Assembly: GCA_035253695.1 (NCBI GenBank)
Contig: DATFBS010000064.1
Coordinates: 1 to 50,696, forward strand
Direction of reading: 5' to 3'
DNA: 50,696 nt
Source of the DNA: Gemmatimonadaceae bacterium
GTDB taxonomy: Bacteria; Gemmatimonadota; Gemmatimonadetes; Gemmatimonadales; Gemmatimonadaceae
Part shown: in pieces, positions 24,230 to 49,387 of the stretch
Position numbering within the stretch: the stretch's first letter is position 1
Layout of the letters: the number at the start of each line of letters is the position of its first letter
Program-made: the position numbers and the translations under genes
The notes under the pieces: model-generated
Databases searched by the model: none
The model's input: only the letters and a program-made list of their open reading frames with translations
What the model was told of the DNA's origin: nothing

Positions 24230-25075
24230 TCATTGTTCGGTGGTCTTCGTCGCCACGACGAGCAAGTGCGCGCTACAGCCGAGTACCGAAGGCTCCGACT
24301 CCAAAAGCCGCGCCACGTGGAGAAGGGCCTTTCGTTGCTCGGGATTCGTCCAGCGTTCGTCGAAGTCAGACAGAATCCATCCCGGGCCTTCCACTCCGTA
24401 GAGGCCTTTCACGGCGAGACCGACTTGCTGCGTCTCCCCGCGCAACTCCTCCGGCGCATGGAAGTACGCTGTCGTGAAGTAGTCCATGCGCTCCGTAGTA
24501 TTGCGGTGCTGGCCTTCCCGCACATCGCGCTCGACGATCCTCGCGAATCGCGCGTCGCCGAGGAGGTTGCGGGAAAGACCATCGAGCGCGGACGCCCAGC
24601 GTGAGATGGCTGCGGCGATGAGCACGCCTCCGGGCGCGAGCACTCGCGCCGCCTCGGCCAGCGCGCGTTGCCGATCGATCGCGTCGACGAGGTGATACAG
24701 CGGCCCGAGCAGGAGCACGAGCTCCGCCGTGGCGTCGGCGAAGGGAAGCTGTCGTGCATCGGCCACGCGACAGGACGCGAGCGCGTGCTTCGCGCGCGCG
24801 TTCCGACGCCGCGCTTCCTCTACGAGGCGCGGCACGGCGTCGACGAGGTGGACGGTGTAGCCACGCTCGGCCAACCAGAAGGCGTACGCACCAGCAGCCC
24901 CACCGACATCGAGCACCGTCGCCGGCGGAGGGGGGCCGTGTCGCTCGACGAGCTCCCGCGTTCGCGCCTCTTCGAGCTTGAAGGGGCCTTGCTCGAGGCG
25001 GGATTCCTCGGGCGTTCGGTCATAGAAGTCGGCGATGGCAGGGTCGAGGCCCGGTAACCGTTCCACGTTAGGCAT
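24230..25075 (-). CDS. class I SAM-dependent methyltransferase
   Basis: SAM-binding motif I VLDVGGAAGAYA, then acidic β2 (VHLVD) and motif post-I (RVLAPGGVL). Confidence 0.75.
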   Translation of the reverse strand: MPNVERLPGLDPAIADFYDRTPEESRLEQGPFKLEEARTRELVERHGPPPPATVLDVGGAAGAYAFWLAERGYTVHLVDAVPRLVEEARRRNARAKHALASCRVADARQLPFADATAELVLLLGPLYHLVDAIDRQRALAEAARVLAPGGVLIAAAISRWASALDGLSRNLLGDARFARIVERDVREGQHRNTTERMDYFTTAYFHAPEELRGETQQVGLAVKGLYGVEGPGWILSDFDERWTNPEQRKALLHVARLLESEPSVLGCSAHLLVVATKTTEQ

Positions 25076-25486
25076 CCAGGAAAGCCACCGCTTCTCGAAA
25101 CTGCTCAGGGGCAGCCAGAAAGGTCAGGAGCGGAATCGTCGTGTCCCGAATCTCGCTCAGCGGCTGAAACCCGAGCTTCGAGAGCAGCTTGAGCGATTCC
25201 GTATTCGGTGCATCGACGGCCGCGCGTATCAGCGGCAGCCGAAGTGCGTCGAAGCCATGAGCAAGTCCGCTCACCATAGCCTCCGTGGCGAGCTCGCGTC
25301 GCCACACCCGGGATGCAAAGCGATTACCGGTTCATGGAACGTGAACGCGCCCTTCAACGCTACCTCGCGATCATCGAAAAGGTATCGCCGCACCGGAGGG
25401 GCATTCCAGATCCTGAGTATCCGGTCGACGTCATCGTCCATTGTCGGACGCAGCGTCAGCCGGCGGGTCTGCAGCGCGGGAAGCAC
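25068..25486 (-). pseudogene. GNAT (RimJ/RimL-like) N-acetyltransferase, frameshifted and possibly internally deleted
   Basis: N-terminal GNAT segment (GTG 25486; LQTRRLTLRPTMDDDVDRILRIWNAPPVRRYLFDD) ends at a stop at 25271. The C-terminal GNAT segment (RFASRVWRRELATEAMVSGLAHGFDALRLPLIRAAVDAPNTESLKLLSKLGFQ) is in another frame (25068-25330). Span 419 nt is not a multiple of 3. The middle acetyl-CoA-binding region looks shortened. Confidence 0.45.
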
Positions 25487-25959: not shown

Positions 25960-26160
25960 GTGTCGTCAGGCATTCGAGCGCCGCAGGCCGCCCCGCGCAT
26001 CAGGCCTAACGAGAAGACCATTCCGCCGCGGCCGGAGCGGGAGACGAAGACCCGAGAAGTGTGACGTGCATCACGAATGTTGCCCCTTGATGGAACACCT
26101 GTCCCTTCTAGATTGCGCGGCCCTGCGGGGTTCCTGTCAACTCCTCTTCAGGAGGCAGGT

Positions 26161-26313
26161 GTGCGGAAGAAACCCACGCTTGTGCTCGAGACCCTCGAGC
26201 CACGGATCGCTCCCGAAGCGATCGGCAATCCGGGGAACAACAATCCCCCCGCCAACAACACCAACAATCCGGGCAATGAGGGCACCGGTGGCAAGGTCTC
26301 GACCGGCCCGTAA
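26161..26313 (+). CDS. small precursor-like peptide A (50 aa): conserved leader + Gly/Asn/Pro-rich core
   Basis: GTG start preceded by AGGAGG. Sequence MRKKPTLVLETLEPRIAPEAIGNPGNNNPPANNTNNPGNEGTGGKVSTGP. It shares the leader with peptide B. The ORF-track version starts further upstream at 26077. Confidence 0.5.
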   Translation: MRKKPTLVLETLEPRIAPEAIGNPGNNNPPANNTNNPGNEGTGGKVSTGP

Positions 26314-26377
26314 GTGCCGGGCCGGGCAAGCTGGTTCCACTGAGTTTCCAATCACATCAACCTGGGAGTGAACTCAC

Positions 26378-26554
26378 ATGGAAGAGAAACCCACGCTGAA
26401 GCTCGAGGAGCTCGAGCAGCGCATCGCACCGGAAAGTGTCGGCAACCCGCATGACGCTCCTCCAGGCCAGGGCAATTGGGGCGGCGGTCCGGGCAACTCC
26501 GGCCCAGGCGATCAGAACGGCCAGAACAATCAAGGCGACGGCGGCCAGCCGTAG
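26378..26554 (+). CDS. small precursor-like peptide B (58 aa), paralog of peptide A
   Basis: ATG with GGGAG 8 nt upstream. Sequence MEEKPTLKLEELEQRIAPESVGNPHDAPPGQGNWGGGPGNSGPGDQNGQNNQGDGGQP. It is below the ORF-track cutoff. The leader KPTLxLExLExRIAPExxGNP is conserved with peptide A. Confidence 0.5.
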   Translation: MEEKPTLKLEELEQRIAPESVGNPHDAPPGQGNWGGGPGNSGPGDQNGQNNQGDGGQP

Positions 26555-26569
26555 CACGGCGATCGAAGG

Positions 26570-26646
26570 GTGGCTGTCGCGATCCCTGCGACAGCCACTC
26601 CTCGGCGTAGCTGCTTGAACTCGTTCCGCCGCGAAGTCGGCGGAAC
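26570..26646 (+). terminator. two consecutive stem-loops (11-bp and 9-bp perfect stems) between the peptide genes and the processing/export gene; attenuator or partial terminator
   Basis: GTGGCTGTCGC-gatccct-GCGACAGCCAC (26570-26598) and GTTCCGCCG-cgaagt-CGGCGGAAC (26623-26646), read directly. Confidence 0.4.
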
Positions 26647-26654
26647 ATGAGGGG

Positions 26655-28982
26655 GTGCGGGCCGGACTCATGACAATGAGCGCGGAACCGAAGCTTCGGA
26701 CCGATCTGATCGTCAGCCGGATGGAGACGCCGGAAGGTCCGCGGTTTGTGCTCAAGGATCCACGCACTCGGCGGTACTTTCGGCTTCGGGAGCTCGAGTA
26801 CGCAATCGCCCGCCGGCTGGATGGACGGTCGCCGACCGCCGAGCTGGCGCCGGCCCTCTCCGCCGAGCTGGATGTCGATCTCGATGCCAGCGCACTCGAT
26901 GCGTTCGTGGCCCAGCTCCGTCGGCAGGGGTTGATCGACGACCCCTCGGCGCCGACACCACCACGCGAAGGCTTCGTCCGCGGCACGCCCCTCTATCTCC
27001 GCTTCCGCGCGTTCGACCCCGACCGACTGCTCGACTGGCTGATCGTTCGGGTGCGGTTCTTCTTCACCCCGTACTTCGTCCTCGGCTCGGCGGTGCTTCT
27101 GGGCTGGGCGATCATCACAGTCGTCACGCATCGTGCCGACATCATGCAGGACCTCACCCGCCTGTGGAACTTCCAGAGTCTGTTCCTCGCCTGGGTCGTG
27201 GTCCTCTGTGTCGTGACGTTGCACGAGTTCGCGCACGGGCTCACCTGCAAGAACTTCGGCGGCAGGGTGCACGAGATGGGCTTCATGCTCATCTACTTTC
27301 AGCCAGCCTTCTACTGCAACATCAGCGATGCGTGGCTGTTTCCGCAGAAGTCCCGGCGACTCTGGGTGACGGCGGCGGGCGCATACTTCGAGCTGTTCGT
27401 ATGGTCGGTCGCCACGCTGATCTGGACGGTCGTCGAGCCGGGGACGTGGATCAGCGGCGTGGCCCTCATCGTGATGGCGACTTCGGCCATCAAGCAGTTC
27501 TTCAATCTGAATCCGCTGATCAAGCTGGACGGCTACTATTTCCTGAGCGATCTCCTCGAGGTGCCGAACCTGAGACAGCGGGCATTTTCATATCTGAGTG
27601 GCAGACTGAGACGCCTCGTCGGAGCGATTGAGCCCTCTGGATTGCTGGACGCCTCCGGACGGGAGCGCGCGATATTCGTCGCCTACGGCGCGATGGCGTT
27701 CACGTTCTCGTACTGGTTCCTCGCGAAGATCGTGCTTGGTATCGGTGGGTATCTGACCTCTCGGTATCAGGGTCCGGGCTTCGTGGCGTTCACGATGTTC
27801 CTCGGCCTGGTATTTCCACAGCCCGTGCGTCGCCTTATCGGACGCCGCACGAGTTCGCGTCCCACGCCACCCCCGTCGACGGCGGTCTCTCCGCAGACGG
27901 ACACAACCGCGTCCGCGGCCCCGGCGCCTTCTGCGTCGGGAGTAAAGCTCGGTAGTCGAAAGCGGAGGGCGGTGTCGCTCACGCTCGCCGCCGTGGTGGT
28001 CGCGCTCCTTTTCGTGGCGCGCATTCCGTTACGCGTCGGCGGGGCGTTCGAGCTTCTTCCCGCGCGGAACGCCGACGTTCCCTCCACGATCGGCGGCGTC
28101 ATCGAACGGGTGTATGTCGAGGAAGGAAGCGTAGTGGAAGCCGGCGACACCATCGCGCGTCTCTCCGGGCGAGACCACCGCGCTCGTTTGAGAGCGGTGG
28201 AGGCCGATGTCGCCGAACGCGAAGCACAACTTCGGCTGCTCAAGGCTGGGGCACGTCCGGAAGAGCTCGCTCTCGCGCGACTCGCGGTGGCGAGGGCGGA
28301 GGAACCGCTCCGGGTTGCGCAGGCGGAAGTGGAACGGGTGCGCACACTCGCGGCGACGCAGGTCGTGACGCGCGCGGAGCTCGAGCGGGCCGAAGAGCAA
28401 GTGGCGGTGCTCACCAACGAGCTGGAGCAGGCGCGCGGGCGGCTCGCGATGCTGACCGCGGGAAGCCGTCCTGAAGAGATCGCCGCGACGGCACAGGCGG
28501 TCGCGCGGGCGGTGGCCGAGCGAAATCGACTGGAGGCCGAGATCGCGCGCCTGGTGGTGGTCGCACCCCATGGCGGTGTGGTCATGACTCCGCGTCTCTG
28601 GGAGAAAGTCGGGGGCTACGTCGAGCCTGGCGACCTGGTCGCGGAAATCCACTCCCTCGATCGCCTAACGGCGCAGATCGACGTCTCCGAGCGGGACATT
28701 GGAGAGGTCCAGCTCGGGCAACCCGTCGCACTGCGACTTCGTGCGTACCCCAACCGAACATTTCAGGGGACGGTCACGCGCATCGCCGGCGCTGCCGCCG
28801 ACAGCGGCTGGCTCACGGAGCGAACGGTTCGGGTCGAGGTGGACCTCCCGAATGCCGGCCACCTGCTCCGGCCGATGATGACGGGCTATGCCCGTATCCA
28901 CGTCGGGGACCGGCGAGCCGTCGACGTCTTGACGCGCCGCGTTAGGCGTTACGTTCGCGTCGAATTCTGGTCGTGGTGGTGA
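26655..28982 (+). CDS. tripartite fusion: PqqD-like RRE domain + M50/site-2-protease-family metalloprotease + HlyD-type periplasmic adaptor
   Basis: N-terminus (YFRLRELEYAIARRLDGRSPTAELAPAL...ALDAFVAQLRRQGLI) fits the PqqD/RRE pattern. The TM region contains HEFAHGL (HExxH) and FNLNPLIKLDGYYF (NxxPxxxLDG), diagnostic for S2P/M50. The C-terminal half has a biotin-lipoyl-like hairpin (VYVEEGSVVEAGDTIARL), a long coiled coil and a HlyD β-barrel region. GTG start at 26655; alternative ATGs at 26670 and 26676. Confidence 0.8.
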   Translation: MRAGLMTMSAEPKLRTDLIVSRMETPEGPRFVLKDPRTRRYFRLRELEYAIARRLDGRSPTAELAPALSAELDVDLDASALDAFVAQLRRQGLIDDPSAPTPPREGFVRGTPLYLRFRAFDPDRLLDWLIVRVRFFFTPYFVLGSAVLLGWAIITVVTHRADIMQDLTRLWNFQSLFLAWVVVLCVVTLHEFAHGLTCKNFGGRVHEMGFMLIYFQPAFYCNISDAWLFPQKSRRLWVTAAGAYFELFVWSVATLIWTVVEPGTWISGVALIVMATSAIKQFFNLNPLIKLDGYYFLSDLLEVPNLRQRAFSYLSGRLRRLVGAIEPSGLLDASGRERAIFVAYGAMAFTFSYWFLAKIVLGIGGYLTSRYQGPGFVAFTMFLGLVFPQPVRRLIGRRTSSRPTPPPSTAVSPQTDTTASAAPAPSASGVKLGSRKRRAVSLTLAAVVVALLFVARIPLRVGGAFELLPARNADVPSTIGGVIERVYVEEGSVVEAGDTIARLSGRDHRARLRAVEADVAEREAQLRLLKAGARPEELALARLAVARAEEPLRVAQAEVERVRTLAATQVVTRAELERAEEQVAVLTNELEQARGRLAMLTAGSRPEEIAATAQAVARAVAERNRLEAEIARLVVVAPHGGVVMTPRLWEKVGGYVEPGDLVAEIHSLDRLTAQIDVSERDIGEVQLGQPVALRLRAYPNRTFQGTVTRIAGAAADSGWLTERTVRVEVDLPNAGHLLRPMMTGYARIHVGDRRAVDVLTRRVRRYVRVEFWSWW

Positions 28983-31578: not shown

Positions 31579-32295
31579 TCACCTCGGCTTGAGGAGGGCG
31601 CGAAGCTTGGCGCTGTGCGTCCGGCTCGACGTGATGCGAGATCCATCCTTCATCGTGAGGACGTATTGTCCGTGGACGTGCGGCTCCAGGGTCGTAACGC
31701 AGTCCACGTTGACGATCGCCGAGCGATGCACGCGCACGAATTTGCTCGGATCGAGGCGTGCCTCGACGGACTTGAGCGTCTCGCGGACGAGATGCCGCCG
31801 GCCGCCGCTGTGCAGACGAGCGTAATTCCCCTCGCCGGCGATCCACTCCACGTCGGCGGCGCGGACAAGGGTCATTCGGGACGCCGACCGTACGACGAAT
31901 CGCGCTTCGGGGCGCGGACGTTCGCTCACCCGCGCGCGCGCGCGTGCCAGCGCCGCCCGAAACCGGGCACGGTCGAAGGGCTTGAGAAGGTAGTCGACCG
32001 CGCTGACGTCGAATGCGCGCAGCGCGTACTCATCGTACGCGGTGACCACGACGATGAACGGACGCTGCTCGGGGGCCAGATGGGACTCGAGCAGCTGCAC
32101 GAGACCAAATCCATCCATCCCGGGCATTTGCACGTCGAGAAAGAGCACCTGGGGGGCCGACTCGAGGATTCCCGTCAATGCCTCTTCGCCAGTGCGGTAT
32201 TCCCCGACGAGCGTGACGTCCATTTCGTCAGCCAGCAGCGCACGAATGCGTTCGCGTCCCAGCGGCTCGTCGTCGACCAGGGCGACGCGTACCAT
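31579..32295 (-). CDS. LytTR-family response regulator (REC + LytTR DNA-binding domain)
   Basis: REC domain with phospho-acceptor Asp (LFLDVQMPGMDG). C-terminal LytTR domain (RFVVRSASRMTLVRAADVEWIAGEGNYARLH...FVRVHRSAIVN). Confidence 0.85.
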   Translation of the reverse strand: MVRVALVDDEPLGRERIRALLADEMDVTLVGEYRTGEEALTGILESAPQVLFLDVQMPGMDGFGLVQLLESHLAPEQRPFIVVVTAYDEYALRAFDVSAVDYLLKPFDRARFRAALARARARVSERPRPEARFVVRSASRMTLVRAADVEWIAGEGNYARLHSGGRRHLVRETLKSVEARLDPSKFVRVHRSAIVNVDCVTTLEPHVHGQYVLTMKDGSRITSSRTHSAKLRALLKPR

Positions 32296-32296
32296 C

Positions 32297-33421
32297 TCAG
32301 GCGACGGCCGCTCGGAACGGGATGTCCACCGCGACGAGCAGGCCGCCGTCCTCGCCGTTGGTGAGGTGGAGCGAGTGGTCAGCCCCGTAGCGCTCGCGAA
32401 GCCGCTCGCGGGTGTTCGTTAGGCCGACCCCTTCGCGCGGAAAGCCATTGCCCTGAAGGGCCCCTCCCGGACCGTCGTCGGAAACGGAAAGGTGCAGACG
32501 CTCGCCGTCTCGCCTGGCGCTAATGGTGACGCGGCCGCGCCCATGACGGGACCCGATGCCGTGTTGCAGCGCATTCTCGACGAGCGGCTGCAACACGAAC
32601 CGCGGAACCAGCGCGCTTTTCGTCTCGGTCGCGACTCTCACATCGAGCGTCAGTCGGTCCTCGAATCGCACCCGCGCGATGTCGAGATACGCGTCCAGCA
32701 GTTGCAGCTCCTCGTCGAGCGGGACCTCGGGCCGGTCGCGACCGTCGAGCGTGCGGCGCAGGAGATCCCCGAGCCGAGCCAGCATGGTGTCGGCTGCCTC
32801 GACGTCCCGGTGCATGAGCGTCGAGATGGCGTGCAGTGTGTTGAACAGAAAATGAGGCTGGAGCTGCGCGGTGAGCGTTTCAAGACGTGCTTCGGCGAGT
32901 CGCGTCTCCAGACGTGCGGCGCGCGCGGTGTCCTCCATGGCGCGGCGGTTGAACTCGACGGCGTGGATGACGGCGAACATCGCTGCGAACGCCATGAACT
33001 CGTAGACGATGTTGCTGAGAATCAGGCGGCCGACGACGACACTCCGGTAGTCGGGGATGAGCCAGGCGGCGATCCCAGCGTACATGAAGTACTTGATCGG
33101 AACGCAGGCGAGCGCGACGAGCGTTTGAACGCTCACCGACCGCCACCACCGCGCCCGCTCCCACGGGATCGCGCGCACGACCCAGAAAAACAACGGCGTG
33201 AAGACCGCGCAGGTGTACCAGTCCGCGAGCCGGTCGATCAGCACCGGCGTCCATGGCACCGGGCGGCCGTCGCGCATGAAGTAGATGGACGTCTGGACCG
33301 CCGAGAGCAGTCCGAGCGCCGTCCAGACGACGAAGCCGAGCAGCCATGGCTGCCATCGGCGCGCGGGCGATCGGGAAGAGAGCATCAGAAGAGAATCTGG
33401 CCCCGAACCGAGGGGAGGCAA
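32297..33421 (-). CDS. LytS/YehU-type sensor histidine kinase
   Basis: Multi-TM N-terminus. His_kinase-type H-box (LQPHFLFNTLHAISTL). HATPase_c motifs (LQPLVENALQHGI, DDGPG, GVGLTNTRERL). The gene ends 1 nt before the response-regulator start, so the two form an operon. Confidence 0.8.
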   Translation of the reverse strand: MPPLGSGPDSLLMLSSRSPARRWQPWLLGFVVWTALGLLSAVQTSIYFMRDGRPVPWTPVLIDRLADWYTCAVFTPLFFWVVRAIPWERARWWRSVSVQTLVALACVPIKYFMYAGIAAWLIPDYRSVVVGRLILSNIVYEFMAFAAMFAVIHAVEFNRRAMEDTARAARLETRLAEARLETLTAQLQPHFLFNTLHAISTLMHRDVEAADTMLARLGDLLRRTLDGRDRPEVPLDEELQLLDAYLDIARVRFEDRLTLDVRVATETKSALVPRFVLQPLVENALQHGIGSRHGRGRVTISARRDGERLHLSVSDDGPGGALQGNGFPREGVGLTNTRERLRERYGADHSLHLTNGEDGGLLVAVDIPFRAAVA

Positions 33422-40337: not shown

Positions 40338-41033
40338 TTACGGAGCGGTCCGCTCACGCGCGGCAGGAAACGCGGCCGCAGGGTAGGGGCCAATCTTGTC
40401 GACGGTGTACGCACTCGCCCAGAAGTCCGGCGGCCCTTCGCTGTCGGCGACGCGGTTGCTCACCGGTTTCACGCCGCGCTTGAGATACGCGGCGACGTCG
40501 CGCAGGTCCTGGTCGGACATGTGTCGGAACGCCGGCCATGGCATGGGCACGGCAAGATACTTTGGATGTGCCGGAAAGTTGCCCTGGCCCGGAGTGGTCG
40601 ACGTGATGTCGACGTCCGGCGTCTCACCGGGGCGCAAGCCGTATCGCAACGCGTTGAAGATCTGGCGCTCGCTGAACCGGCCGAGCCCCGTCATGTTGTC
40701 AGGGGTGAGATTGCGCGGCCGCGTCCTGAAGGGCCCGATCTTGAATTCCTGCGAGGTGTCTCGCGCCCCGACGAGCCAGCCATCCGCGTTCGGATTCGAG
40801 CCGCCGCCATGGCAGTCTCCGCACGCGTGGTGAATCACCAGCGTCCGTCCGCGCATCACCTGCTCATCCGCCGCCAGGCTCGCCGATGCGTCGTCCACGC
40901 CAAGACTCACGAAGAAGGAGCCAGCGAGAGCCGCGACGACGACAAGACCCAGCACCACCGGGGCCGACCTGCTTCGTGTGCGCTGCGATCCCACGATATC
41001 CTCCTTGCGATAGATGAGGCGTATCCCCTTCAT
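40338..41033 (-). CDS. membrane-anchored mono-haem cytochrome c
   Basis: Start MKGIRLIYRK (ATG 41033). One TM/signal segment. CGDCH haem-binding motif. The ORF-track extension to 41534 overlaps the multicopper oxidase gene. Confidence 0.65.
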   Translation of the reverse strand: MKGIRLIYRKEDIVGSQRTRSRSAPVVLGLVVVAALAGSFFVSLGVDDASASLAADEQVMRGRTLVIHHACGDCHGGGSNPNADGWLVGARDTSQEFKIGPFRTRPRNLTPDNMTGLGRFSERQIFNALRYGLRPGETPDVDITSTTPGQGNFPAHPKYLAVPMPWPAFRHMSDQDLRDVAAYLKRGVKPVSNRVADSEGPPDFWASAYTVDKIGPYPAAAFPAARERTAP

Positions 41034-42436
41034 GGCGAGCGCGTCGCGCTGCGCGCGTCGGCGTTTCGCTCTTCGATCACTTCGAGAATCCCCATCATCC
41101 CGTGATCCTCGTGGTCGAGGATGTGGCAGTGGAACATCCACTTGCCCGGGAAGTTGGCGTACCGGACGATGAACCGCGCCGATCCGTGCTTCGGCACGTT
41201 CACCACATCCTTCCAGGCGCGGAACCGCTCTGGCACCCCGTTGCGATCGAGCACCTGGAACTGGAAGCCATGCAGGTGGAAGGGATGGTCCATTCCGACG
41301 AGGTTCTCGATCTCCCAGATCTCGGTGGCGCCCAGCTTCGCGGCGACGTCCACGCGGCTGTGATCCATCATCTGACCGTTGATCATCCCCTGCGTGAGCA
41401 CCATGAGCCGCGTGGCGGTCGACTGCGTGGTGTCCAGCGCCGGCACTGGACGCAGCACGGCAGGCAACGGTGCGGCGCTGATCGGCCGTCGCTTCGTGTA
41501 TTGCAGTGTGAGCAGGTCGCGGGTGCGATTCCACGTCTGCGGGCGCGTCTGCGGGACGTAGCGATCGTAGGGAAGGGCCTGCAGGGGAACACGGTCTCCC
41601 GGCGCACCGGTTCCCCGTATCAGCAGCTCGACGCGCTCCGCGTTCGCGACGAGAATCTCATCGACTTCGACCGGATGCTCGAAGAGCCCGCCATCGCTGC
41701 CGACATGCAGCAGCGTGTGGCCGGGCAGTGAAAGCCGGTACACCCGGGCAGCCGACGCATTGATCACGCGCCACCGCTGCATTTCTCCAGCGCGGATGCT
41801 GATCGTCGGCATCACCGTGCCATTCACGAAAACGATGTCGCCTTCGCGGCCGTTCTCCCGGTCGACGATGCCCGCCGTCGAGAGCGACGCCGGCAGATCG
41901 ATCGAGTTGTCGGCCGCGAATCGGTTGTCGGAGATGACGATCAGCTTTTCGGGGAGCCCGCGGAGTGGATCGTCGGCCGCCCGGACGATGACGGCGCCGT
42001 AGAGTCCTTTCGCGATCTGATAGCCCGTCCGGTGATGCGGGTGGGGATGATACCAGTACGTGCCAGCCGTCCCCGGCCGAATGGTGAAGACGTAATCGTA
42101 CGTTTCCCCGGGGGCGACCGGATGAAATGGGCTTCCGTCCGACGTGAACGGCAGATGCAGGCCGTGCCAGTGAATGGTCGTCGGCTCAGGGAGCTTGTTT
42201 CGAAAGTGGACCGTCACCCGGTCTCCTTCGCGGAACTCCAGCGTAGGCCCGGGGAATTGCCCGTTGTAGGCGAACATCTCGGTCGGCGCGCCCGGCGCGA
42301 GCGACAACCGTGTGGGCGCGGCGGTGAGCGTTACCTCCACCCGCCGCTGCGAGAGAGCGGGCATCGCCCACATCGCCGTGAGGCCAACGAGCACCAACCC
42401 GCGGCGGAGCGTCGTCGCTCGGCGGTTGATCGACAT
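41030..42436 (-). CDS. multicopper oxidase (laccase/CueO-like), probable Tat substrate
   Basis: Copper-binding motifs HWHGLH, WYHPHPH, HPFHLHG and HCHILDHEDHGMM. Tat-like RRATTLRRG N-terminus. It overlaps the cytochrome c start by 4 nt. Confidence 0.8.
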   Translation of the reverse strand: MSINRRATTLRRGLVLVGLTAMWAMPALSQRRVEVTLTAAPTRLSLAPGAPTEMFAYNGQFPGPTLEFREGDRVTVHFRNKLPEPTTIHWHGLHLPFTSDGSPFHPVAPGETYDYVFTIRPGTAGTYWYHPHPHHRTGYQIAKGLYGAVIVRAADDPLRGLPEKLIVISDNRFAADNSIDLPASLSTAGIVDRENGREGDIVFVNGTVMPTISIRAGEMQRWRVINASAARVYRLSLPGHTLLHVGSDGGLFEHPVEVDEILVANAERVELLIRGTGAPGDRVPLQALPYDRYVPQTRPQTWNRTRDLLTLQYTKRRPISAAPLPAVLRPVPALDTTQSTATRLMVLTQGMINGQMMDHSRVDVAAKLGATEIWEIENLVGMDHPFHLHGFQFQVLDRNGVPERFRAWKDVVNVPKHGSARFIVRYANFPGKWMFHCHILDHEDHGMMGILEVIEERNADARSATRSP

Positions 42437-42759
42437 GGTGGGATCTCGGAGAGAGCCGCCGGGCGAAATTCCCGCGCGACTCGTCAGGCAGCGTCAGCGC
42501 AACCGTCGGCGCACCGTTGCGCCGGCGCGCAAAAATGCCTCGTCCAGGCGATTTCGGAAAGACCCGACCTTACCGGAGGGGGTGCTCGCCTGTTTCCAGC
42601 GGGTATCGGCCGACGCAGAGTTGCGGCCGGCGCCGCGGCCGGTAGCTTAGCAGCACCTGCGCGGGCATTCGCGCAAGTCTCCTGGAAGTCCTCCCGGCGG
42701 TGACCTTTCCCCGTCAGAGGAGGCGTACGCAGCAAGCCCGTTCTCGCCACGAGGTGCCC

Positions 42760-45700
42760 ATGGGTACGCGCAGTCTGATTCGCGCGGTCGTGCTGACCGC
42801 ATCGTTGGGGACGCTCGCCAGCATCGCTGGCGCACAGGAACAGCAGGCGACGATCACCGGCCGAGTCACCGATGCCAGCACCGGCGAGCCGATCGCCTCG
42901 GCGCAGGTGAGCGTGGTCGGGACGGCGATCGGTGCCGCGACGAACAGCGAAGGTCGCTACACGATCCGAGGTGTTCGCGCCGGAGTCGTAGAGCTGCGCG
43001 TGCTGCGCGTGGGCTACGCGGAACGGAAGCAATCCGTCACCGTGGCCGCGGGCCAGGCGACCACGGCCGACTTCGCGATGACGGTCGCGCCGATCTCCCT
43101 CGCGCCGGTCGTCACGACCGCCACCGGCGAGCAGCGACGTGTCGAGCTCGGCAACTCGATTGGGAACGTCGATGCGGCGAAGCTCACGGAAGAGAAGCCG
43201 ATATCGAACATCGGCGACCTCCTGGCCTCACGCGTCTCCGGAGTGACGGTGACCCCCGGCGTGCAAACGGGCGCCGGTATCCGCATCCGCATTCGCGGAA
43301 CGAGCTCGCTCTCACTCACCAACAATCCCATCTACGTCATCGATGGGATCCGCGTCGAAGGCACCACCGGCGCGTCGTCGGTGAGCGTGGGCGGGACGAC
43401 GACGAGTCGCGTCGGCGACATCAACCCGGAAGAGATCGAGTCGATCGAGATCGTCAAAGGCCCCTCGGCGGCGACGTTGTACGGCACGGACGCGGCGAAC
43501 GGCGTGGTCGTGATTCGCACCAAGCGCGGCGTCTCCGGTCGCGCCCAATGGACGTACTACACCGAGCAGACGGCGATTACCGATCGCAGCGACTACCCGA
43601 CCGCGTATCGCGCGTGGCGGACCGGCACGACGAGCACGACGAACTCGACGCCGTCGAACACGGTGCAGTGCTTCCTGAGCCAGGTGTTGACGGCGGCATG
43701 CACGCAGGACAGCGTCACGAGCTTCAATCTGCATGAGGACGACGAGACGACTCCATACGGCATCGGCTATCGCCAGCAGCATGGCTTGCAGCTCGCCGGG
43801 GGCTCGGAGACCATTCGCTACTTCGTGCATGGCGAGTGGGAGGATGAGGATGGTGTCACCAAGCTGCCCAAGTTCGACGAGCGGTACCTGGCCGCGCGCG
43901 GCCTGTCGCTCCGGGACGAGCAGCAGGACCCCAACCATCTGCGGCGCATAACGGGTCGCGCCAACATCAGCTTCGCACCGCGCGACAACCTCGACCTCGC
44001 CGTCCACGCCGGCTACACATCGCTCGACATCCGGCTGCCGATGAGCGACGACTCCGGCACCGCGGGCATTGCGGCGAACACCTACGGAGGACCGGGCTTC
44101 AAGTACAACATGAACGCCGCCGGCGACACGCTCTATGGCTGGCGCGAGTTCACGCCTCGCGATGTGTACGAGGCGGTCACGGAGCAGAACATCGAGCGCC
44201 TCATCAGCTCGGTGTCGGCCAACTGGCGCCCACGCGAGTGGCTGGCCGTGCGCAGTAACTTCGGTGTCGACTACATCAACCGCGTTGATCTGCAGCTTTG
44301 CCGGTTCGGCGAGTGCACCAACAGCACCGACCGCGCCGGGTTCAAGGAAGACAATCGGACGAACTATTTCCTGTACACGCTCGACGCCGGTGCAACGGCG
44401 ACGCGCCAGCTGAGCGATGCGCTCGAATCACAGACGACGGCCGGGCTCCAGGTCACGCGCAACGTGTTCAATCGCAATGGTGCGCGGGGCGAGCAGCTTC
44501 CCCCGGGCGCCACGACGGTGGGCACGGGAAGCGTGATCCGGGCCGACGAAGCGACCACCGAGAGCCGGACAGTCGGAGCGTTCCTCGAGCAGCGCATGGC
44601 GTTCCGCGACCGACTCTTTGTGACGGGCGCGATCCGCTCCGATCGGAACAGCGCGTTCGGCGCCGACTTCGAGACGGTGTTCTACCCGAAATTCTCGCTC
44701 TCATGGATCCTATCGGAGGAGCCCTCCTTCCCGGCGCTGGGATGGCTCAACCAGTTCCGGTTGCGTACGGCGTACGGAGCCTCTGGCGTTCAGCCGGGCA
44801 CCACGGACGCAGTGCAGTTTTACAGCAGTACTCGCACGATTGGCGAGAGCGGGGAAGCCACGGGCGTCGCTTTCACGGCATTGGGCAACCGCGACCTCAA
44901 ACCGGAGCGATCCAACGAGTGGGAGGGCGGGTTCGACGCCAGCTTCTTCAACAGCAGGGTGAACACCGAGCTGACCTACTATCGCAAGATCTCCAAGGAT
45001 GCGCTCGTCAGCCGCACGCTTCCTCCTTCCATAGGGACGGGTGCCACGACCCGCTTCGAGAACCTGGGGGAAGTGCGCAACTCCGGGTGGGAAGCAATGA
45101 TCGATGCCCAGATCATCGACATGGATCGCTTCGGCTGGAGCCTGACGATGACCGGATCGACCAACAGCAACGAGCTCGTCAGCCTCGGGGGCGTTCCGCC
45201 GATCATCACCAGCAGCACGCTCCGTCAGGTCGAGGGCTATCCGCTCAATGGATGGTGGTCGCGGCGCCTGGTGAGCTACAACGACGCCAACCGTGACGGG
45301 ATCATCGCGCTCGGCGAGATCGTGGTCAGCGACACCGCCGAGTTTCACGGGTACTCCTCGCCCCGCCGCGAGGCGGCGTTCACCAACACGTTCAGCTTCC
45401 TGAACCGTCGGCTGCGGCTGTCCGCCTTGATGGACTACAAGGGCGGCCACCTCGTCTACAACAACAGCGAGCGCATCCGTTGCGCGAGCCGCTTCAACTG
45501 TGCCGGCCTGGTCTCTCGCAACGCATCGCTCTTCGAGCAGGCGAGGACGGTGATGGTGCGCGAGCATGCGAGCCGATCCGTCGCGGGGTTCTTCGAGAAG
45601 GGCGACTTCCTCCGCTTCCGCGAGCTCGCGCTCACCCTCACGCCATCGGATGAGTGGGCCGCGCGGCTGTTCCGCGGACGGAGCATCACCGCCACGGCCG

Positions 45701-45843
45701 CCGTGCGCAACCTCGGCATGCTGTGGACGGAGTACACGGGGGTCGATCCCGAAGCCTTCGGCACCACCGGGGATGCGCCGTCATCGTTCCAGGCCTTCGG
45801 CCCGCCAACGTACTTCTCGTTCCGTCTCACCCTCGGCTTCTAG
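42760..45843 (+). CDS. SusC/RagA-family TonB-dependent outer-membrane receptor
   Basis: Start MGTRSLIRAVVLTASLG (signal). CarboxypepD_reg N-terminal domain. Plug region (IDGIRVEG...NPEEIESIEIVKGPSAATLYG). Long β-barrel ending in an aromatic residue (TLGF). Confidence 0.85.
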   Translation: MGTRSLIRAVVLTASLGTLASIAGAQEQQATITGRVTDASTGEPIASAQVSVVGTAIGAATNSEGRYTIRGVRAGVVELRVLRVGYAERKQSVTVAAGQATTADFAMTVAPISLAPVVTTATGEQRRVELGNSIGNVDAAKLTEEKPISNIGDLLASRVSGVTVTPGVQTGAGIRIRIRGTSSLSLTNNPIYVIDGIRVEGTTGASSVSVGGTTTSRVGDINPEEIESIEIVKGPSAATLYGTDAANGVVVIRTKRGVSGRAQWTYYTEQTAITDRSDYPTAYRAWRTGTTSTTNSTPSNTVQCFLSQVLTAACTQDSVTSFNLHEDDETTPYGIGYRQQHGLQLAGGSETIRYFVHGEWEDEDGVTKLPKFDERYLAARGLSLRDEQQDPNHLRRITGRANISFAPRDNLDLAVHAGYTSLDIRLPMSDDSGTAGIAANTYGGPGFKYNMNAAGDTLYGWREFTPRDVYEAVTEQNIERLISSVSANWRPREWLAVRSNFGVDYINRVDLQLCRFGECTNSTDRAGFKEDNRTNYFLYTLDAGATATRQLSDALESQTTAGLQVTRNVFNRNGARGEQLPPGATTVGTGSVIRADEATTESRTVGAFLEQRMAFRDRLFVTGAIRSDRNSAFGADFETVFYPKFSLSWILSEEPSFPALGWLNQFRLRTAYGASGVQPGTTDAVQFYSSTRTIGESGEATGVAFTALGNRDLKPERSNEWEGGFDASFFNSRVNTELTYYRKISKDALVSRTLPPSIGTGATTRFENLGEVRNSGWEAMIDAQIIDMDRFGWSLTMTGSTNSNELVSLGGVPPIITSSTLRQVEGYPLNGWWSRRLVSYNDANRDGIIALGEIVVSDTAEFHGYSSPRREAAFTNTFSFLNRRLRLSALMDYKGGHLVYNNSERIRCASRFNCAGLVSRNASLFEQARTVMVREHASRSVAGFFEKGDFLRFRELALTLTPSDEWAARLFRGRSITATAAVRNLGMLWTEYTGVDPEAFGTTGDAPSSFQAFGPPTYFSFRLTLGF

Positions 45844-45855
45844 GACGACGATCCG

Positions 45856-47253
45856 ATGATTTCATACACGAGGACACGCTCGGTACTCACCCGGCTGCGT
45901 CGGTCCGCGGCGGTGGTGTCACTCACCGTCGCTGCCGCGGGAGCTCTTCCGCTGGCGAGCTGCTCGCCGGACGATTTTCTGACGATTACCGACCCGGACA
46001 TCATCAATCCCAGCGATGTGCAGTCGCCCGCGGGAGCGAACGCGGTACGACTCGGCGCAATATCTCGGTTCAAAATGGCCACCAGCGGAGCGCCGCCCAC
46101 GGGAGCCGATACCTCGAGCCTATTCCTGCTCGGAGGGTTGTTCGCTGACGAATGGATCAACGGCGATTCGTTCATTGCACGGCAGGAGATCGACCAGCGG
46201 GTCATCACCACCGAGAACACGTTCCTGACCACGGCCAACCGCATTCTGCACCGCGCGAGGTTCAACGCCGAGCTCGCCGTCGAGCTGCTCGCGCAGTGGG
46301 TCCCCAACGCCCCCGCGTGGCAGGTCGGCGAGATGCACCTCATTCAGGCCTACGTCGCGAACATTCTGGCCGAGCACTATTGCGACGGCCTGGTCTTCAG
46401 CGAAGTCGTCGACGGACGGGAAGTGTACGGAACGCCGATCACCGTGATGCAGACGTTGGAGCGTGCCCTCGAGCACGCGAACGACGGGCTCGCGCTAACG
46501 TTCGGTACGGACACGGCATCGCTTCGCGTCCAGCGGTCGCTGCAGGTCATCAAAGGACGCATTCTGTTGAACCTGAATCGCCCGGCTGAGGCAGCCACGG
46601 CGGTGGCAGGGGTACCCGCGAATTTCGCGTACATCAACGCGCACAGCACGACGACCAGCATCAACGGGGTGTGGCAGTACAACAACCTCGCGCGGCGGTA
46701 CAGCGTCGGGAACGCGGAGGGTGGGAACGGGATCAACTTCGCGACAGCCGGGGACCCACGACTCCCGGTGTGCGTCGGCGGTACGACCGGATGCATCTCG
46801 CAGTCGACCCGCGACGATCAGTCGCAGCCGATACACGTGCAGCGGAAATGGCCGAATTCGGATAGTCCCGTCGCCATCATCACTGGCGTCGAGGCTCGGA
46901 TGATTCGGGCCGAGGCATTGCTCCGCGCGGGAAACTTCGCGGCGGCATTGGACACGATCAACGCCGCGCGGACGGGGGTCACCGGGCTCACGCCGCTGAC
47001 CGACCCGGGAAGTGACTCGGCTCGGGTGAGTCTGCTCTTCCGCGAGCGTGCCTTCTGGATGTTCGGGACCGGCACTCGCGTCGGGGATCTTCGCCGGCTC
47101 ATTCGCCAGTATGGCCGACCACAGAACACCGTCTTCCCGACGGGAGTGTGGCACAAGGGCGGGAACTACGGCACCGACGTCAACATGCCCGTTCCGCAGG
47201 CCGAGCTGAACAACCCGAACGTCGAGCAGGCCTGCCTCAATCGGAATGCGTAG
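45856..47253 (+). CDS. SusD/RagB-family outer-membrane lipoprotein
   Basis: Lipobox LASCSPDD. C-terminal RagB/SusD signature (EARMIRAEALLRAGNFAAALDTINAAR). Immediately downstream of the SusC gene. Confidence 0.7.
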   Translation: MISYTRTRSVLTRLRRSAAVVSLTVAAAGALPLASCSPDDFLTITDPDIINPSDVQSPAGANAVRLGAISRFKMATSGAPPTGADTSSLFLLGGLFADEWINGDSFIARQEIDQRVITTENTFLTTANRILHRARFNAELAVELLAQWVPNAPAWQVGEMHLIQAYVANILAEHYCDGLVFSEVVDGREVYGTPITVMQTLERALEHANDGLALTFGTDTASLRVQRSLQVIKGRILLNLNRPAEAATAVAGVPANFAYINAHSTTTSINGVWQYNNLARRYSVGNAEGGNGINFATAGDPRLPVCVGGTTGCISQSTRDDQSQPIHVQRKWPNSDSPVAIITGVEARMIRAEALLRAGNFAAALDTINAARTGVTGLTPLTDPGSDSARVSLLFRERAFWMFGTGTRVGDLRRLIRQYGRPQNTVFPTGVWHKGGNYGTDVNMPVPQAELNNPNVEQACLNRNA

Positions 47254-49387
47254 CTGGCTGTTCGCGGCCGCCTGTGTGGCCGCGGTCGGACACGGCGTCG
47301 CAGCTCAGGCACCTAACGAGGTGCCTGAGCTCGCGCGCCGCGTGGAGGTGCGGCGGACGGCGTTCGGAGTTCCGCACATCAAGGCCGACGATCTGCGTGC
47401 CGCGGCGTATGCGCTCGCCTACGTGCAGCTCGAGGATCACGGCGCGCGGGTCGCGATCGGTCTGCTGCGTGCGCGCGGCGAGATGGGTCGCTGGTTCGGG
47501 CGCGACAGCATGGAAAGCGACTTCTCGGCCAAGCGGGACTATGCGCTGGCGGTGGAGCACTACGCGCAGATCGATCAGGCGACACGCGACGTGTACGAGG
47601 GGTTCGCGGCCGGGGTCAATCGATACATCGCGCTCCATCCCGAGGAGTTTCCGCCGGAGTTCGCGCCGAACTTCACCGGATACGATGTCGCGGCGCGCGA
47701 CGTGAGCTCGGCGTCAGCCGCGCAGGCTCGGCGATTTCTCGCCCGATTCGAGGCCCCACGGCAGCGCGGGCCCGGCGACGCGCCTCCTCCGAGCGAGGGC
47801 ATCGACGACATCGAGGAAGGATCCAACGCCTGGGCCTTCGCGCCGAGCCGCACGAGGTCGGGGCGCGCGATTCTCCTTCGCAATCCGCACCTCTCGTGGA
47901 CCGCCGGATACTACGAGGCGCACGTCACCGTCCCTGGGGTGCTCGATTTCTACGGAGATTTCCGCATCGGCGGGCCCTTCGGCGTCATCGGCGGCTTCAA
48001 TCGCCACCTCGGGTGGGCGACGACGAACAATGCGCCCGATCTCGACGAGATCTACGCGCTCGACGTCGATCCATCACTCCCCGATCACTTCCTGTTCAAT
48101 GGGACGTCGCTTCCCGTGCAGCGCGAGCTCGTGACGGTCGCCTTCCGGAACGGGCCCGGCGTGTCCACCGAGACTCGTGAGATGTGGCGGACGCCGCTCG
48201 GACCGGTCATCCATCGCGACAGCGGCAAGGTGTACGTGCTTCGCGCAGCTGCCGAGGGAGAGTTCCGCGCCGGCGAGCAGTTCCTGCGGATGATGCGGGC
48301 GCAATCGCTCGCCGAATGGAAGGACGCGATGCGTATCCGTGCCCGGGTGAACTCCAACTTCACCTATGCCGATCGTGCGGGAAACATCTTCTACGTATGG
48401 AACGCCTCGATTCCCGCGCTGCCGCATCCAAGCGGAGGAGATACGACGGCGGTGCCAGCGCGCGGTATCGACGACGTGTGGACTCGTTATGTGCCCTTCG
48501 ATTCGCTGCCGCAGCTCCTCAACCCGCGCGGCGGCTATGTGCGCAACGAGAACGATCCGCCCTACCATACGAACTTGCGGCAGGTGCTCGATCGCTCGCG
48601 CTACCCCGCCAACTTCCCCGAGCCGCTGCTGCGACTCCGCAGCCAGCTGAGTCTCGCGTTGATCGACCCACCGAAGAAGCTGAGCCTCGAGGACGTCGTC
48701 GCGCTGAAGCACTCCTATCGCATGCTGCTCGCCGATCGCGTCAAGGATGACCTCGTGGCGGCGGTGAGAGCCTCGTCGCCTTCCCCGCCGGTGAGCGAGG
48801 CGATCGAGCTCCTCAGGCGCTGGGACAACACCGCCGGACACACGAGCCGTGGGGGCGTGCTCTTCGAAACGTGGTGGCGGAAATACGTCGAGGGCGCCAA
48901 TCCCGACACGATGTTCGCACAGCCGTGGTCCGTCGAAGCCGCGGCGACGACTCCCCGAGGTCTGAAGGACCGCTCGAGAGCCGCCGAGGCATTTGCCTGG
49001 GCTGTCGAGGAGACGACGCGGCGGCATGGCCGCTACGATGTCGCCTGGGGTGAAGTACATCGCGTGCGCATCGGCACGGTCGACGTGCCGGTTGGTGGAT
49101 GCAGCGGCGCCCTTGGCTGCTTCCGCGTGCTCAACTTCAGAACCGACGCCGACGGCAAACGCTCGGTGGTCGGGGGCGATGGCTGGGTCATCGCCGTCGA
49201 GTTCACCGATACGCCGCGCGCCTACTCGGTGCTCGCGTACGGAGAAAGCGCGCGCGAGGACTCACCGCATCACGCCGATCAGGCCGAGATGTTCGCGCGC
49301 GGCGAAATGAAGCGCGTGGCCCTCACCGAGCGCGACATCGAGTCACAAACGATTCGTCGCTACCGCCCGGGCGCCATCGCCCCGTGA
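47246..49387 (+). CDS. penicillin acylase-family Ntn-hydrolase (AHL acylase/PvdQ-like), secreted
   Basis: Signal peptide. β-subunit N-terminal nucleophile motif GSNAWA. Overall length and motifs fit the family. It overlaps the SusD stop by 8 nt. Confidence 0.8.
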   Translation: MRSWLFAAACVAAVGHGVAAQAPNEVPELARRVEVRRTAFGVPHIKADDLRAAAYALAYVQLEDHGARVAIGLLRARGEMGRWFGRDSMESDFSAKRDYALAVEHYAQIDQATRDVYEGFAAGVNRYIALHPEEFPPEFAPNFTGYDVAARDVSSASAAQARRFLARFEAPRQRGPGDAPPPSEGIDDIEEGSNAWAFAPSRTRSGRAILLRNPHLSWTAGYYEAHVTVPGVLDFYGDFRIGGPFGVIGGFNRHLGWATTNNAPDLDEIYALDVDPSLPDHFLFNGTSLPVQRELVTVAFRNGPGVSTETREMWRTPLGPVIHRDSGKVYVLRAAAEGEFRAGEQFLRMMRAQSLAEWKDAMRIRARVNSNFTYADRAGNIFYVWNASIPALPHPSGGDTTAVPARGIDDVWTRYVPFDSLPQLLNPRGGYVRNENDPPYHTNLRQVLDRSRYPANFPEPLLRLRSQLSLALIDPPKKLSLEDVVALKHSYRMLLADRVKDDLVAAVRASSPSPPVSEAIELLRRWDNTAGHTSRGGVLFETWWRKYVEGANPDTMFAQPWSVEAAATTPRGLKDRSRAAEAFAWAVEETTRRHGRYDVAWGEVHRVRIGTVDVPVGGCSGALGCFRVLNFRTDADGKRSVVGGDGWVIAVEFTDTPRAYSVLAYGESAREDSPHHADQAEMFARGEMKRVALTERDIESQTIRRYRPGAIAP

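Follow-up and report, generated by a model that had tools for sequence, protein, structure and literature searches.

Daptides are peptides that came to light through MpaP, an intramembrane site-2 protease (S2P) to which an RRE (recognition element of peptides that are synthesized ribosomally and modified after translation, RiPPs) is fused N-terminally; their gene clusters encode several precursors, the leader of which, ELExMEAP, is cut right after the conserved proline (Ren et al., bioRxiv 10.1101/2023.03.08.531785), and they also encode ABC transporters. A locus which resembles these clusters in part, and departs from them in part, is found on a contig of a Gemmatimonadaceae bacterium (GenBank assembly GCA_035253695.1, contig DATFBS010000064.1, positions 1–50,696 of the forward strand); this whole stretch of 50,696 nucleotides is referred to as the window. 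Between 26.1 and 29.0 kb it contains, on the plus strand, three co-directional genes: two small peptide genes, here called pep1 and pep2, and a gene for a 775-residue protein in which an RRE, an S2P and a HlyD-type periplasmic adaptor are fused. The closest characterized relative of this fusion is the daptide leader peptidase MpaP/DapP, an RRE-S2P protein. The peptide genes are real, the three modules of the fusion and the catalytic motifs are present, and peptides with the same leader are tightly linked to homologous fusions across phyla. On balance, we favor the view that the three genes form a self-contained cassette by which two small, hydrophilic peptides rich in Gly, Asn and Pro are matured and secreted in a leader-dependent manner. 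An earlier, sequence-only reading of the region had already proposed precursor-like peptides sharing a leader beside a maturation and export fusion, and the present analysis supports that proposal, export being what the domain architecture points to.

Both S2P leader peptidases guided by an RRE and peptide export assisted by HlyD are already known; new are the fusion of three modules, the lack of a pump, the large family of precursors and the link to LEPR-XLL proteins described below. In the searchable full text of the literature, which does not cover many subscription journals, neither the fusion nor its leader and cores nor a role of LEPR-XLL is described: the combination of PqqD, HlyD and M50, or of “peptidase M50” and HlyD, returns nothing, what the leader strings retrieve are unrelated word matches, the core strings retrieve nothing, and the few papers in which LEPR-XLL and DUF4347 occur deal with other subjects. 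HlyD is unmentioned in the original daptide report and in one follow-up. With leader binding, cleavage and a periplasm-spanning adaptor assigned to one polypeptide, the locus would represent a minimal, portable cassette which lends itself to an easy heterologous test.

The fusion protein and known leader peptidases

The fusion gene extends from 26655 to 28982 (+) if its GTG start is used; in-frame ATG codons at 26670 and 26676 are further candidates, the latter being the start of the NCBI model (768 aa). The PqqD-like RRE, the putative leader-binding domain, is encoded by 26688–26939 (about residues 12–95) and consists of three strands followed by three helices. Its assignment by the sequence-only reading was borne out by Pfam, where PqqD (PF05402) reaches 29.0 bits over residues 32–94 against a cut-off of 23.4, and by an AlphaFold model computed from an alignment of 82 homologues (mean predicted local distance difference test score, pLDDT, 86.8), in which residues 19–90 run strand-strand-strand-helix-helix-helix and adopt a winged-helix fold. 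The site-2 (M50) intramembrane metalloprotease domain follows (27012–27842, about residues 120–396) with six hydrophobic helices. Its zinc-binding and catalytic motif HEFAH (27222–27236; H190, E191, H194) and the second S2P motif NLNPLIKLDG (27504–27533; N284, N286, P287, L288, D292, G293) are invariant in the 82 homologues and lie at the ends of the hydrophobic helices 172–195 and 262–283; thus the HEFAH and NxxPxxxLDG motifs, previously read as intact, are found within an S2P fold. Fold comparison of this part gives scores of 7.7 with RseP, 7.6 with the S2P of M. jannaschii and 7.6 with SpoIVFB, showing the S2P core fold to be present.

The protease is connected to the adaptor by a basic, disordered, Pro/Ser/Thr/Ala-rich linker, predicted to be cytoplasmic (27843–27968, about residues 397–438; disordered at 399–434 in the model, with pLDDT <50 at residues 405–434), the length and sequence of which differ among homologues. 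The seventh transmembrane helix (27969–28040, about residues 439–462; 432–454 in the model), at which hydropathy reaches its maximum of 2.45, anchors the HlyD/MacA/EmrA-type adaptor (28041–28979), made up of lipoyl, α-hairpin and β-barrel parts. HlyD_D23, HlyD_3 and Biotin_lipoyl_2 match residues 470–742, the NCBIfam model RND_mfp exceeds its curated cut-off, and the lipoyl/hairpin/barrel fold stands behind the transmembrane anchor in the model, which together place this part in the HlyD family, as had been claimed from the open reading frame (ORF). The families expected on the basis of that claim were recovered with one qualification, in that PqqD, HlyD_3 and Biotin_lipoyl_2 were found and Peptidase_M50 matched just under its cut-off. 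Foldseek and a profile search of Protein Data Bank sequences agree with the module assignment, and the model as a whole shows a helical membrane domain, the linker, a transmembrane helix and the adaptor. In the hydropathy profile six helices of the protease part are followed by the Lys/Arg-rich linker and the seventh helix, an arrangement in which both the RRE and that end of helix 2 which bears HExxH would be cytoplasmic and the adaptor periplasmic. Present annotations of such proteins (“PqqD family peptide modification chaperone”, “efflux RND transporter periplasmic adaptor subunit”, “multidrug resistance efflux pump”) overlook both the protease and the peptide substrates.

Among the NCBIfam models the best match is that of the daptide intramembrane metalloprotease, NF041824 (E = 8.7e-64, 216 bits, residues 24–383, a score under its cut-off), and the YydH/LiaK model NF058609 matches as well (E = 8.6e-11); by its motifs, these two models and its fold, the fusion is a divergent member of M50. 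As in MpaP/DapP, an N-terminal RRE is joined to a HExxH S2P and several short precursors are encoded per locus; the leader motif here, ELE(E/Q/P)RIAP, can be set against the daptide motif ELExMEAP so that E, L, E, A and P of the two coincide, while the two central positions are different. Unlike in daptide systems, a HlyD-type adaptor is fused to the protease, and the C-terminal threonine that is invariant in daptide precursors occurs in 0 of the 125 peptides collected here. Also, neither an ABC transporter nor a homolog of MpaB, MpaC, MpaD or MpaM (DUF-RRE protein, oxidoreductase, aminotransferase, methyltransferase) accompanies the fusion as a conserved neighbor; the hydrophilic cores, rich in Gly, Asn, Pro and Ser, contrast with the aliphatic and helical ones of daptides; and the hosts belong to diderm soil phyla, those of daptides to Actinomycetota or Bacillota. 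Since the terminal threonine and the Mpa and ABC partners are missing, the score with NF041824 stays below the cut-off and an adaptor is fused, the locus does not encode a daptide system.

Other known leader peptidases and exporters are further away. The pheromone protease Eep, cited as precedent in the sequence-only reading, is a looser analogy than MpaP; Eep and RseP have neither RRE nor adaptor fusion and cut signal peptides or transmembrane segments, which are absent from the precursors in question. YydH/LiaK also lacks an RRE and an adaptor fusion; the partners with which YydH works are a radical-SAM epimerase and an ABC exporter. In bacteriocin and NHLP-Nif11 export, as in the MacAB-TolC, EmrAB-TolC and HlyBD-TolC systems, the likeness lies in leader removal being tied to export via an adaptor of the HlyD family, the fold of which is the same here as in the MacAB, EmrAB and HlyBD systems; but there is no ABC/C39 component at this locus, the leader ends in RIAP and not in GG, and the part of the peptidase is taken by an S2P that forms one chain with the adaptor. 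The corresponding models score far under their cut-offs (TIGR03794, 22.2 vs 156.2 bits; TIGR01843, 69.7 vs 208.65 bits). The RREs of lasso-peptide B1 proteins and PqqD differ in context: here, the RRE is fused to a membrane protease and an adaptor, and neither a lasso cyclase or B2 protease nor a radical-SAM partner is present.

Some further traits of the adaptor are shared by its homologs. The hairpin-tip motif AG(A/S)RPEE is duplicated (28245–28265 and 28458–28478, residues ~531–537 and ~602–608) and, in the form AG(A/S)RPEE(L/I), nearly invariant, which makes the two tips candidate docking sites for an outer-membrane factor; in some homologs each coiled-coil arm is longer by about 30 residues. 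The protein ends in EFWSWW (28962–28979, residues 770–775), which is invariant in the 82 aligned homologs, from many phyla, and sits on an amphipathic C-terminal helix.

Precursor peptides and their linkage to the fusion

The gene pep1 (26161–26313, +, GTG start; NCBI HJU68439.1) encodes a precursor of 50 residues, MRKKPTLVLETLEPRIAPEAIGNPGNNNPPANNTNNPGNEGTGGKVSTGP, with the leader MRKKPTLVLETLEPRIAP (codons 26161–26214) and the predicted core EAIGNPGNNNPPANNTNNPGNEGTGGKVSTGP (26215–26310), the cleavage point being taken over from daptides. It is followed on the same strand by pep2 (26378–26554, ATG start; NCBI HJU68440.1), the product of which has 58 residues, MEEKPTLKLEELEQRIAPESVGNPHDAPPGQGNWGGGPGNSGPGDQNGQNNQGDGGQP, with the leader MEEKPTLKLEELEQRIAP (codons 26378–26431) and the predicted core ESVGNPHDAPPGQGNWGGGPGNSGPGDQNGQNNQGDGGQP (26432–26551). 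The sequence itself confirms several statements made about them before: both contain the common segment KPTLxLExLExRIAPExxGNP, neither contains cysteine, and each ORF has its own Shine-Dalgarno (SD) sequence, AGGAGG at 26150–26155, 5 nt ahead of GTG 26161, for pep1, and an SD-like GGGAG at 26364–26368, 9 nt ahead of ATG 26378, for pep2 (both +). The lengths of 50 and 58 aa, too, are those of the homologs and of the NCBI models; the former start of the region at 26077 is not retained, as it is an in-frame ATG upstream of pep1 which would give an ORF of 78 aa, and the 50-aa form is preferred because the homologs and the NCBI model agree with it. Both database entries are from a Gemmatimonadaceae metagenome-assembled genome (MAG) and are named “hypothetical protein”; pep1 is identical to HJU68439.1, which belongs to a cluster of 24 members. 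Pfam finds no match in either peptide, and NCBIfam only a sub-threshold match of LEPR-8K to pep1. The peptides have no transmembrane segment, and both of those in the window end in proline.

For homologous fusions, 80 related loci (955 kb) were fetched and scanned in all six frames with a leader pattern; with the window they amount to 81 loci, in 62 of which the pattern detects a total of 125 small ORFs (median 53 aa). All 125 are on the strand of the fusion, located 4–1,958 bp upstream or 26–573 bp downstream of it, and not a single match to the pattern was found elsewhere in the six frames of the 955 kb. Where more than 600 bp of upstream sequence is available (n = 66), a leader ORF is present in 60 loci and a variant leader in two more, so that one to six leader peptides accompany the fusion in 62 of 66 informative loci, one of the checks the sequence-only reading had asked for. 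The loci span at least nine phyla, the hosts of the fusion including Gemmatimonadota, Eisenbacteria, Planctomycetota, Verrucomicrobiota, Acidobacteriota, Rokubacteria, Bacteroidota, Betaproteobacteria and Nitrospirae; the three-gene cassette is widespread in soil bacteria. Homologous precursors, which the same reading had suggested seeking by means of the leader, are abundant also beyond these loci: a profile built from 40 peptides retrieves at least 1552 clusters at 90% identity from public protein data, all of them unnamed and without Pfam domain. What this amounts to is a large, unnamed family of ribosomal peptides, filed as “hypothetical” but with a sharply defined leader and about ten core families, which over nine or more phyla are held more constant than the associated enzyme. 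On the side of the fusion, a search limited to 8000 candidates gave at least 2726 proteins with E ≤ 1e-10, and 424 relatives were retrieved from GTDB species genomes via the motifs HEFAHGLT and EFWSWW.

The leader is amphipathic and comprises 18 residues, with the motif ...L.LE.LE.RIAP and the consensus K-x-L-x-L-x-(I/V/L)-E-E-L-E-(E/Q/A/P)-R-I-A-P-(D/S). With positions counted from the arginine (position 0), there is no variation at E(−2), R(0) and A(+2) and almost none at L(−3), I(+1) and P(+3). The cores (median 35 aa) are rich in glycine (24.8%), asparagine (14.5%), serine (10.9%) and proline (10.7%) and fall into about ten recurrent families, which are mixed and matched across loci. In the window, pep1 carries a core of family A, GNPGNNNPPxNNTNNPGNEGTGGxVSTG, and pep2 one of family B, GNPHDxPPGQGNWGGGPGNSGxGDQNGQNNxGDGGQP; family A has 24 orthologs in related loci, and orthologs of family B are found in loci L007, L012, L036, L058 and L096. 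Over 26 residues the family A cores average 88.8% identity, a value to be read with the fact that eight of these residues served as search anchor, without which the identity is still about 84%; the adjacent fusions average 51.2%. Differences between homologous family A genes accumulate at third codon positions (344/324/2529 for positions 1/2/3 of the core), and 2310 of the codon differences are synonymous as opposed to 422 non-synonymous ones. Selection acts on the leader and on the core, and the roughly ten core families are under strong purifying selection. Such constraint on low-complexity Gly/Asn/Pro cores calls for an explanation, be it a receptor, a mineral or metal ligand, a role as matrix component or a hidden modification. 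The stretch GNPGNNNPPxNNTNNPGNEGTGGxVS of family A (26224–26301 in the window) recurs in 23 loci, the window included, and varies mostly at two positions.

The cassette is found in shorter and longer versions and in unrelated places. In another Gemmatimonadaceae genome a fusion 79% identical to that of the window is accompanied by peptides of families A, B, C and D one after another, compared with which the cassette in the window is a shorter version; its neighborhood is wholly different, as it is placed between histidine and leucine biosynthesis genes. Single MAGs may also contain two copies with different core sets (L017/L072, L018/L027, L026/L080, L033/L073, L071/L078), indicating that the system can be multi-copy within genomes.

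Between pep2 and the fusion lie the two strong stem-loops noticed earlier, the first at 26551–26614 (+; 14-bp core stem 26568–26581/26587–26600) and the second, GTTCCGCCG/CGGCGGAAC, at 26620–26651 (+), directly ahead of the start region of the fusion. Their joint folding energy is −60.2 kcal/mol (z = −4.43), and none of 200 shuffled sequences folds as well. They are followed by no T tail and are, for that reason, not canonical terminators; a simple terminator scan did not pick them up, and a search of Rfam with the hairpins gave no match at E ≤ 1. The sequence GAGGGGG at 26649–26655 is situated right behind the second hairpin, which could in this way influence ribosome access at the start of the fusion. 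GC-rich hairpins without T tail behind precursor genes are a general trait of the related loci, present at most of them: among 70-nt windows downstream of 124 precursor genes (L003–L082) 35% have z < −3, whereas for 186 control windows taken from within the fusion gene the figure is 0.5%. The hairpins probably act as attenuators or 3′-end stabilizers which set the ratio of peptide to enzyme.

Proposed maturation and export

According to the reading favored here, pep1 and pep2 would be made as precursors the amphipathic leader of which is bound by the cytoplasmic RRE of the membrane protein; it is the co-occurrence of leader and RRE that argues for this interaction. The six-helix S2P, with its HExxH motif near the cytoplasmic face, would then cut right after the proline of RIAP, a position predicted by analogy with daptides, and free the two cores. 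The adaptor on the seventh helix may serve as a periplasmic conduit toward an outer-membrane channel encoded elsewhere, by which processing would be coupled to export, and the hairpins behind the peptide genes probably raise the amount of peptide transcript relative to that of the enzyme. If the peptides remain unmodified, as presumed, the products would be 32 aa (EAIGNPG...STGP) and 40 aa (ESVGNPH...GGQP) in length, with monoisotopic masses of 3059.393 and 3807.588 Da, respectively.

A second type of cargo is suggested by homologous fusions in Proteobacteria, which were found in a translated search of plasmids. The fusion of Thalassospira is 27% identical to that of the window over 582 aa (E = 5e-52) and has kept HExxH and NPL...D. 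Directly upstream of the fusion, 7 of the 8 Proteobacterial loci inspected contain a giant ORF; six of these seven are annotated as LEPR-XLL, LamG-like, DUF4347 or Ig-like and reach up to 38.7 kb, and the seventh, in Caballeronia, is an unannotated frame of at least 2,073 codons. All five giant proteins of which the N-terminus was read carry a related motif there (HVEPIEPRILLSADP; KMEALEPRFLLSADP; IFDTLEPRVLLNADV; LLALEPRVVYDASV; HFEALEPRLLLSADF). In the Magnetospirillum neighbor, an ELWxxDGT repeat protein, no LEPR motif is present within the first 100 residues, and the giant gene of Pseudohalocynthiibacter apparently spans the start of the circular record. The plasmid loci concerned are L001, L083–L085, L086, L087, L089–L091 and L093, and the motif of these giant, secreted-type proteins has the form ...(E/D)x(L/I)EPR(h)LLSAD. 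The Proteobacterial operons also encode a second, shorter paralog of the fusion and a short adaptor; TolC is encoded in 4 of the 6 annotated ones and DUF3467 in 3 of 6, and none of them has an annotated pump. These extra genes (paralog, short adaptor, TolC, DUF3467) are absent in the window.

The core (E/D)-x-(L/I)-E-x-R-hydrophobic is common to these proteins and to the small peptides, pep1 having LETLEPRIAP; the motif of the latter runs on to AP and not to LL, and their 50–58 aa contrast with the thousands of residues of LEPR-XLL proteins. LEPR-XLL proteins are giant secreted proteins which have an N-terminal ...LEPRxLLS motif. Their model NF012209 gives 12.5 bits (E = 0.085) with pep1, under its cut-off of 17, no match with pep2 and a match with one of 40 related peptides. 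Since giant proteins bearing the motif lie beside homologs of the fusion, the findings suggest that the LEPR-XLL motif is a leader for RRE/S2P/adaptor machinery. The daptide leader peptidase, the LEPR-XLL motif and TolC operons devoid of any annotated pump are linked in this way for the first time, and a function of LEPR-XLL becomes testable.

Several observations weigh against a self-contained cassette of this kind. That cores of such low complexity are so extremely conserved is a hint of an additional partner, be it a modifying enzyme or a receptor, and none was found. Pfam scans of the main ORFs detected no ABC, RND or MFS pump and no outer-membrane factor or TolC in the 50-kb window, nor is a pump or outer-membrane factor conserved across the 80 loci, in line with the earlier remark that no C39-ABC transporter is adjacent; no periplasmic adaptor is known to function without a pump. 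As to the protease, Peptidase_M50 (PF02163) reaches 24.7 bits over residues 180–254, under the gathering score of 27.2, and the 216 bits with NF041824 fall short of the 300-bit equivalog cut-off.

One alternative is that the peptides are true RiPPs, the asparagine, proline, glutamine or serine residues of which are modified by enzymes encoded elsewhere, with the fusion only removing the leader and exporting the product. The cores are more conserved than the enzyme, as is the case for enzyme substrates, RRE domains are typical of RiPP pathways, and sister branches carry candidate tailoring genes (PF13759 in 7, FemAB-like genes in 5 and a 335-aa protein in 23 loci). No tailoring gene, however, is conserved beside core families A–G (about 40 loci), the methyltransferase and the GNAT remnant of the window are non-syntenic, the cassette relocates among unrelated neighborhoods as peptides and fusion only, and there is no RRE besides that of the fusion; modification elsewhere is thus unlikely, if by no means negligible. 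In another alternative the fusion is a conventional adaptor; its HlyD part would dock onto a pump of the ABC, RND or MFS type and onto a TolC-like channel, both encoded elsewhere, and its RRE-S2P part would only stand in for the C39 peptidase domain of bacteriocin ABC exporters. All solved homologs of the adaptor (MacAB, EmrAB, AcrAB, HlyBD) operate with a pump and daptide clusters encode ABC transporters, yet a pump gene is conserved in none of the 80 loci and the Proteobacterial fusion operons have TolC and adaptor-like genes but no annotated pump, so that this arrangement, although it deserves attention, is improbable as well.

It has also to be considered that the true cargo is a large protein of the LEPR type encoded elsewhere, the small peptides being regulators, competitors or signals which use the same leader. 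The giants with a related N-terminal motif beside Proteobacterial homologs could be taken in this sense; in the clade of the window, on the contrary, small peptides are present in 62 of 66 loci and a giant gene beside the fusion in none, and strong purifying selection on the peptide cores makes the idea very hard to sustain. Finally, spurious ORFs are plentiful in GC-rich DNA and most characterized S2P enzymes cut membrane-anchored regulators, so the small ORFs might be due to chance and the fusion a signaling S2P of the RseP/SpoIVFB type without such a peptide substrate. This explanation is ruled out in practice by the 125 strand-matched leader ORFs, the excess of third-position differences and the linkage in 62 of 66 loci. 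The ORFs, for which the sequence-only reading had considered a lack of coding signal as a counterargument, show third-position bias and conservation of amino acids across phyla, each has its own SD and at least 1552 clusters of homologous peptides exist; furthermore, the peptides have no transmembrane segment, and an RRE is a binder of peptide leaders.

The self-contained cassette remains the reading preferred here, and the lack of a conserved pump at these loci and in the Proteobacterial operons allows it to be taken one step further, if only tentatively and with more doubt than belief: the fusion may be the signature of a hitherto unrecognized envelope-spanning secretion route which needs no ABC pump and serves Gly/Asn/Pro-rich peptides of 30–40 residues as well as the giant LEPR-XLL/DUF4347/LamG/Ig-like proteins of Proteobacteria. 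In such a portal the RRE would bind a leader of the (E/D)x(L/I)ExR type, a ring of S2P domains would clip it and also serve the adaptor tube as its base in the inner membrane, and an outer-membrane channel would receive the cargo. If true, this would explain the purpose of the LEPR-XLL motif.

Neighboring genes and sister branches

At the close relatives within the 80 loci no gene other than those for the peptides and the fusion is conserved at the cassette. The neighbors in the window, a generic S-adenosylmethionine-dependent methyltransferase, a GNAT remnant, an HXXEE membrane protein, an amidohydrolase and a beta-lactamase/SnoaL protein, have no relation to the system and are non-syntenic. 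The methyltransferase (24230–25075, −) and the GNAT remnant (25068–25307, −) had been put forward as candidate tailoring genes, a role which was rejected: their domains are generic, and they have no counterpart in the 80 loci or at the 79%-identical relative. That the GNAT gene is degraded was correctly recognized, as only the C-terminal third remains (PF13302, profile positions 92–138).

Sister branches contain additional genes. A 2-oxoglutarate-Fe(II) oxygenase (PF13759) is encoded in loci L031, L035, L039, L040, L060, L065 and L079, and the cores there are perfect collagen-like Gly-X-Y repeats, (GYEGQPGNQGG)n; it is possible that this branch makes a hydroxylated collagen-like RiPP. The 335-aa protein, which has no match in Pfam or NCBIfam, is encoded directly after the fusion (in loci among L042, L046, L050 and L055–L082), and these loci have His/Ser/Lys/Gly-rich repeat cores (SKGSKGSK, HKSKSHKS), two of which match HxsA4. 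The FemAB-like genes belong to distant branches, to which matches of the peptides to other families, that is, collagen-like Scl models and HxsA4, are likewise limited.

Further downstream in the window, 2.6 kb behind the fusion and on the opposite strand, a LytTR response regulator and a His_kinase (PF06580) are encoded (31579–33421, −). LytTR regulators are frequently peptide-responsive; as a peptide-sensing pair belonging to the cassette the two genes were rejected, the pairing being unconserved in relatives, and among the related loci the two-component genes in cluster 5 are of mixed types. A multicopper oxidase is located at 41030–42436 (−). The 1047-aa ORF at 42700–45843 is a TonB-dependent receptor; with its carboxypeptidase-regulatory domain it is the first of three consecutive genes (42700–49387, +), followed by those for a SusD-like protein and a penicillin amidase.

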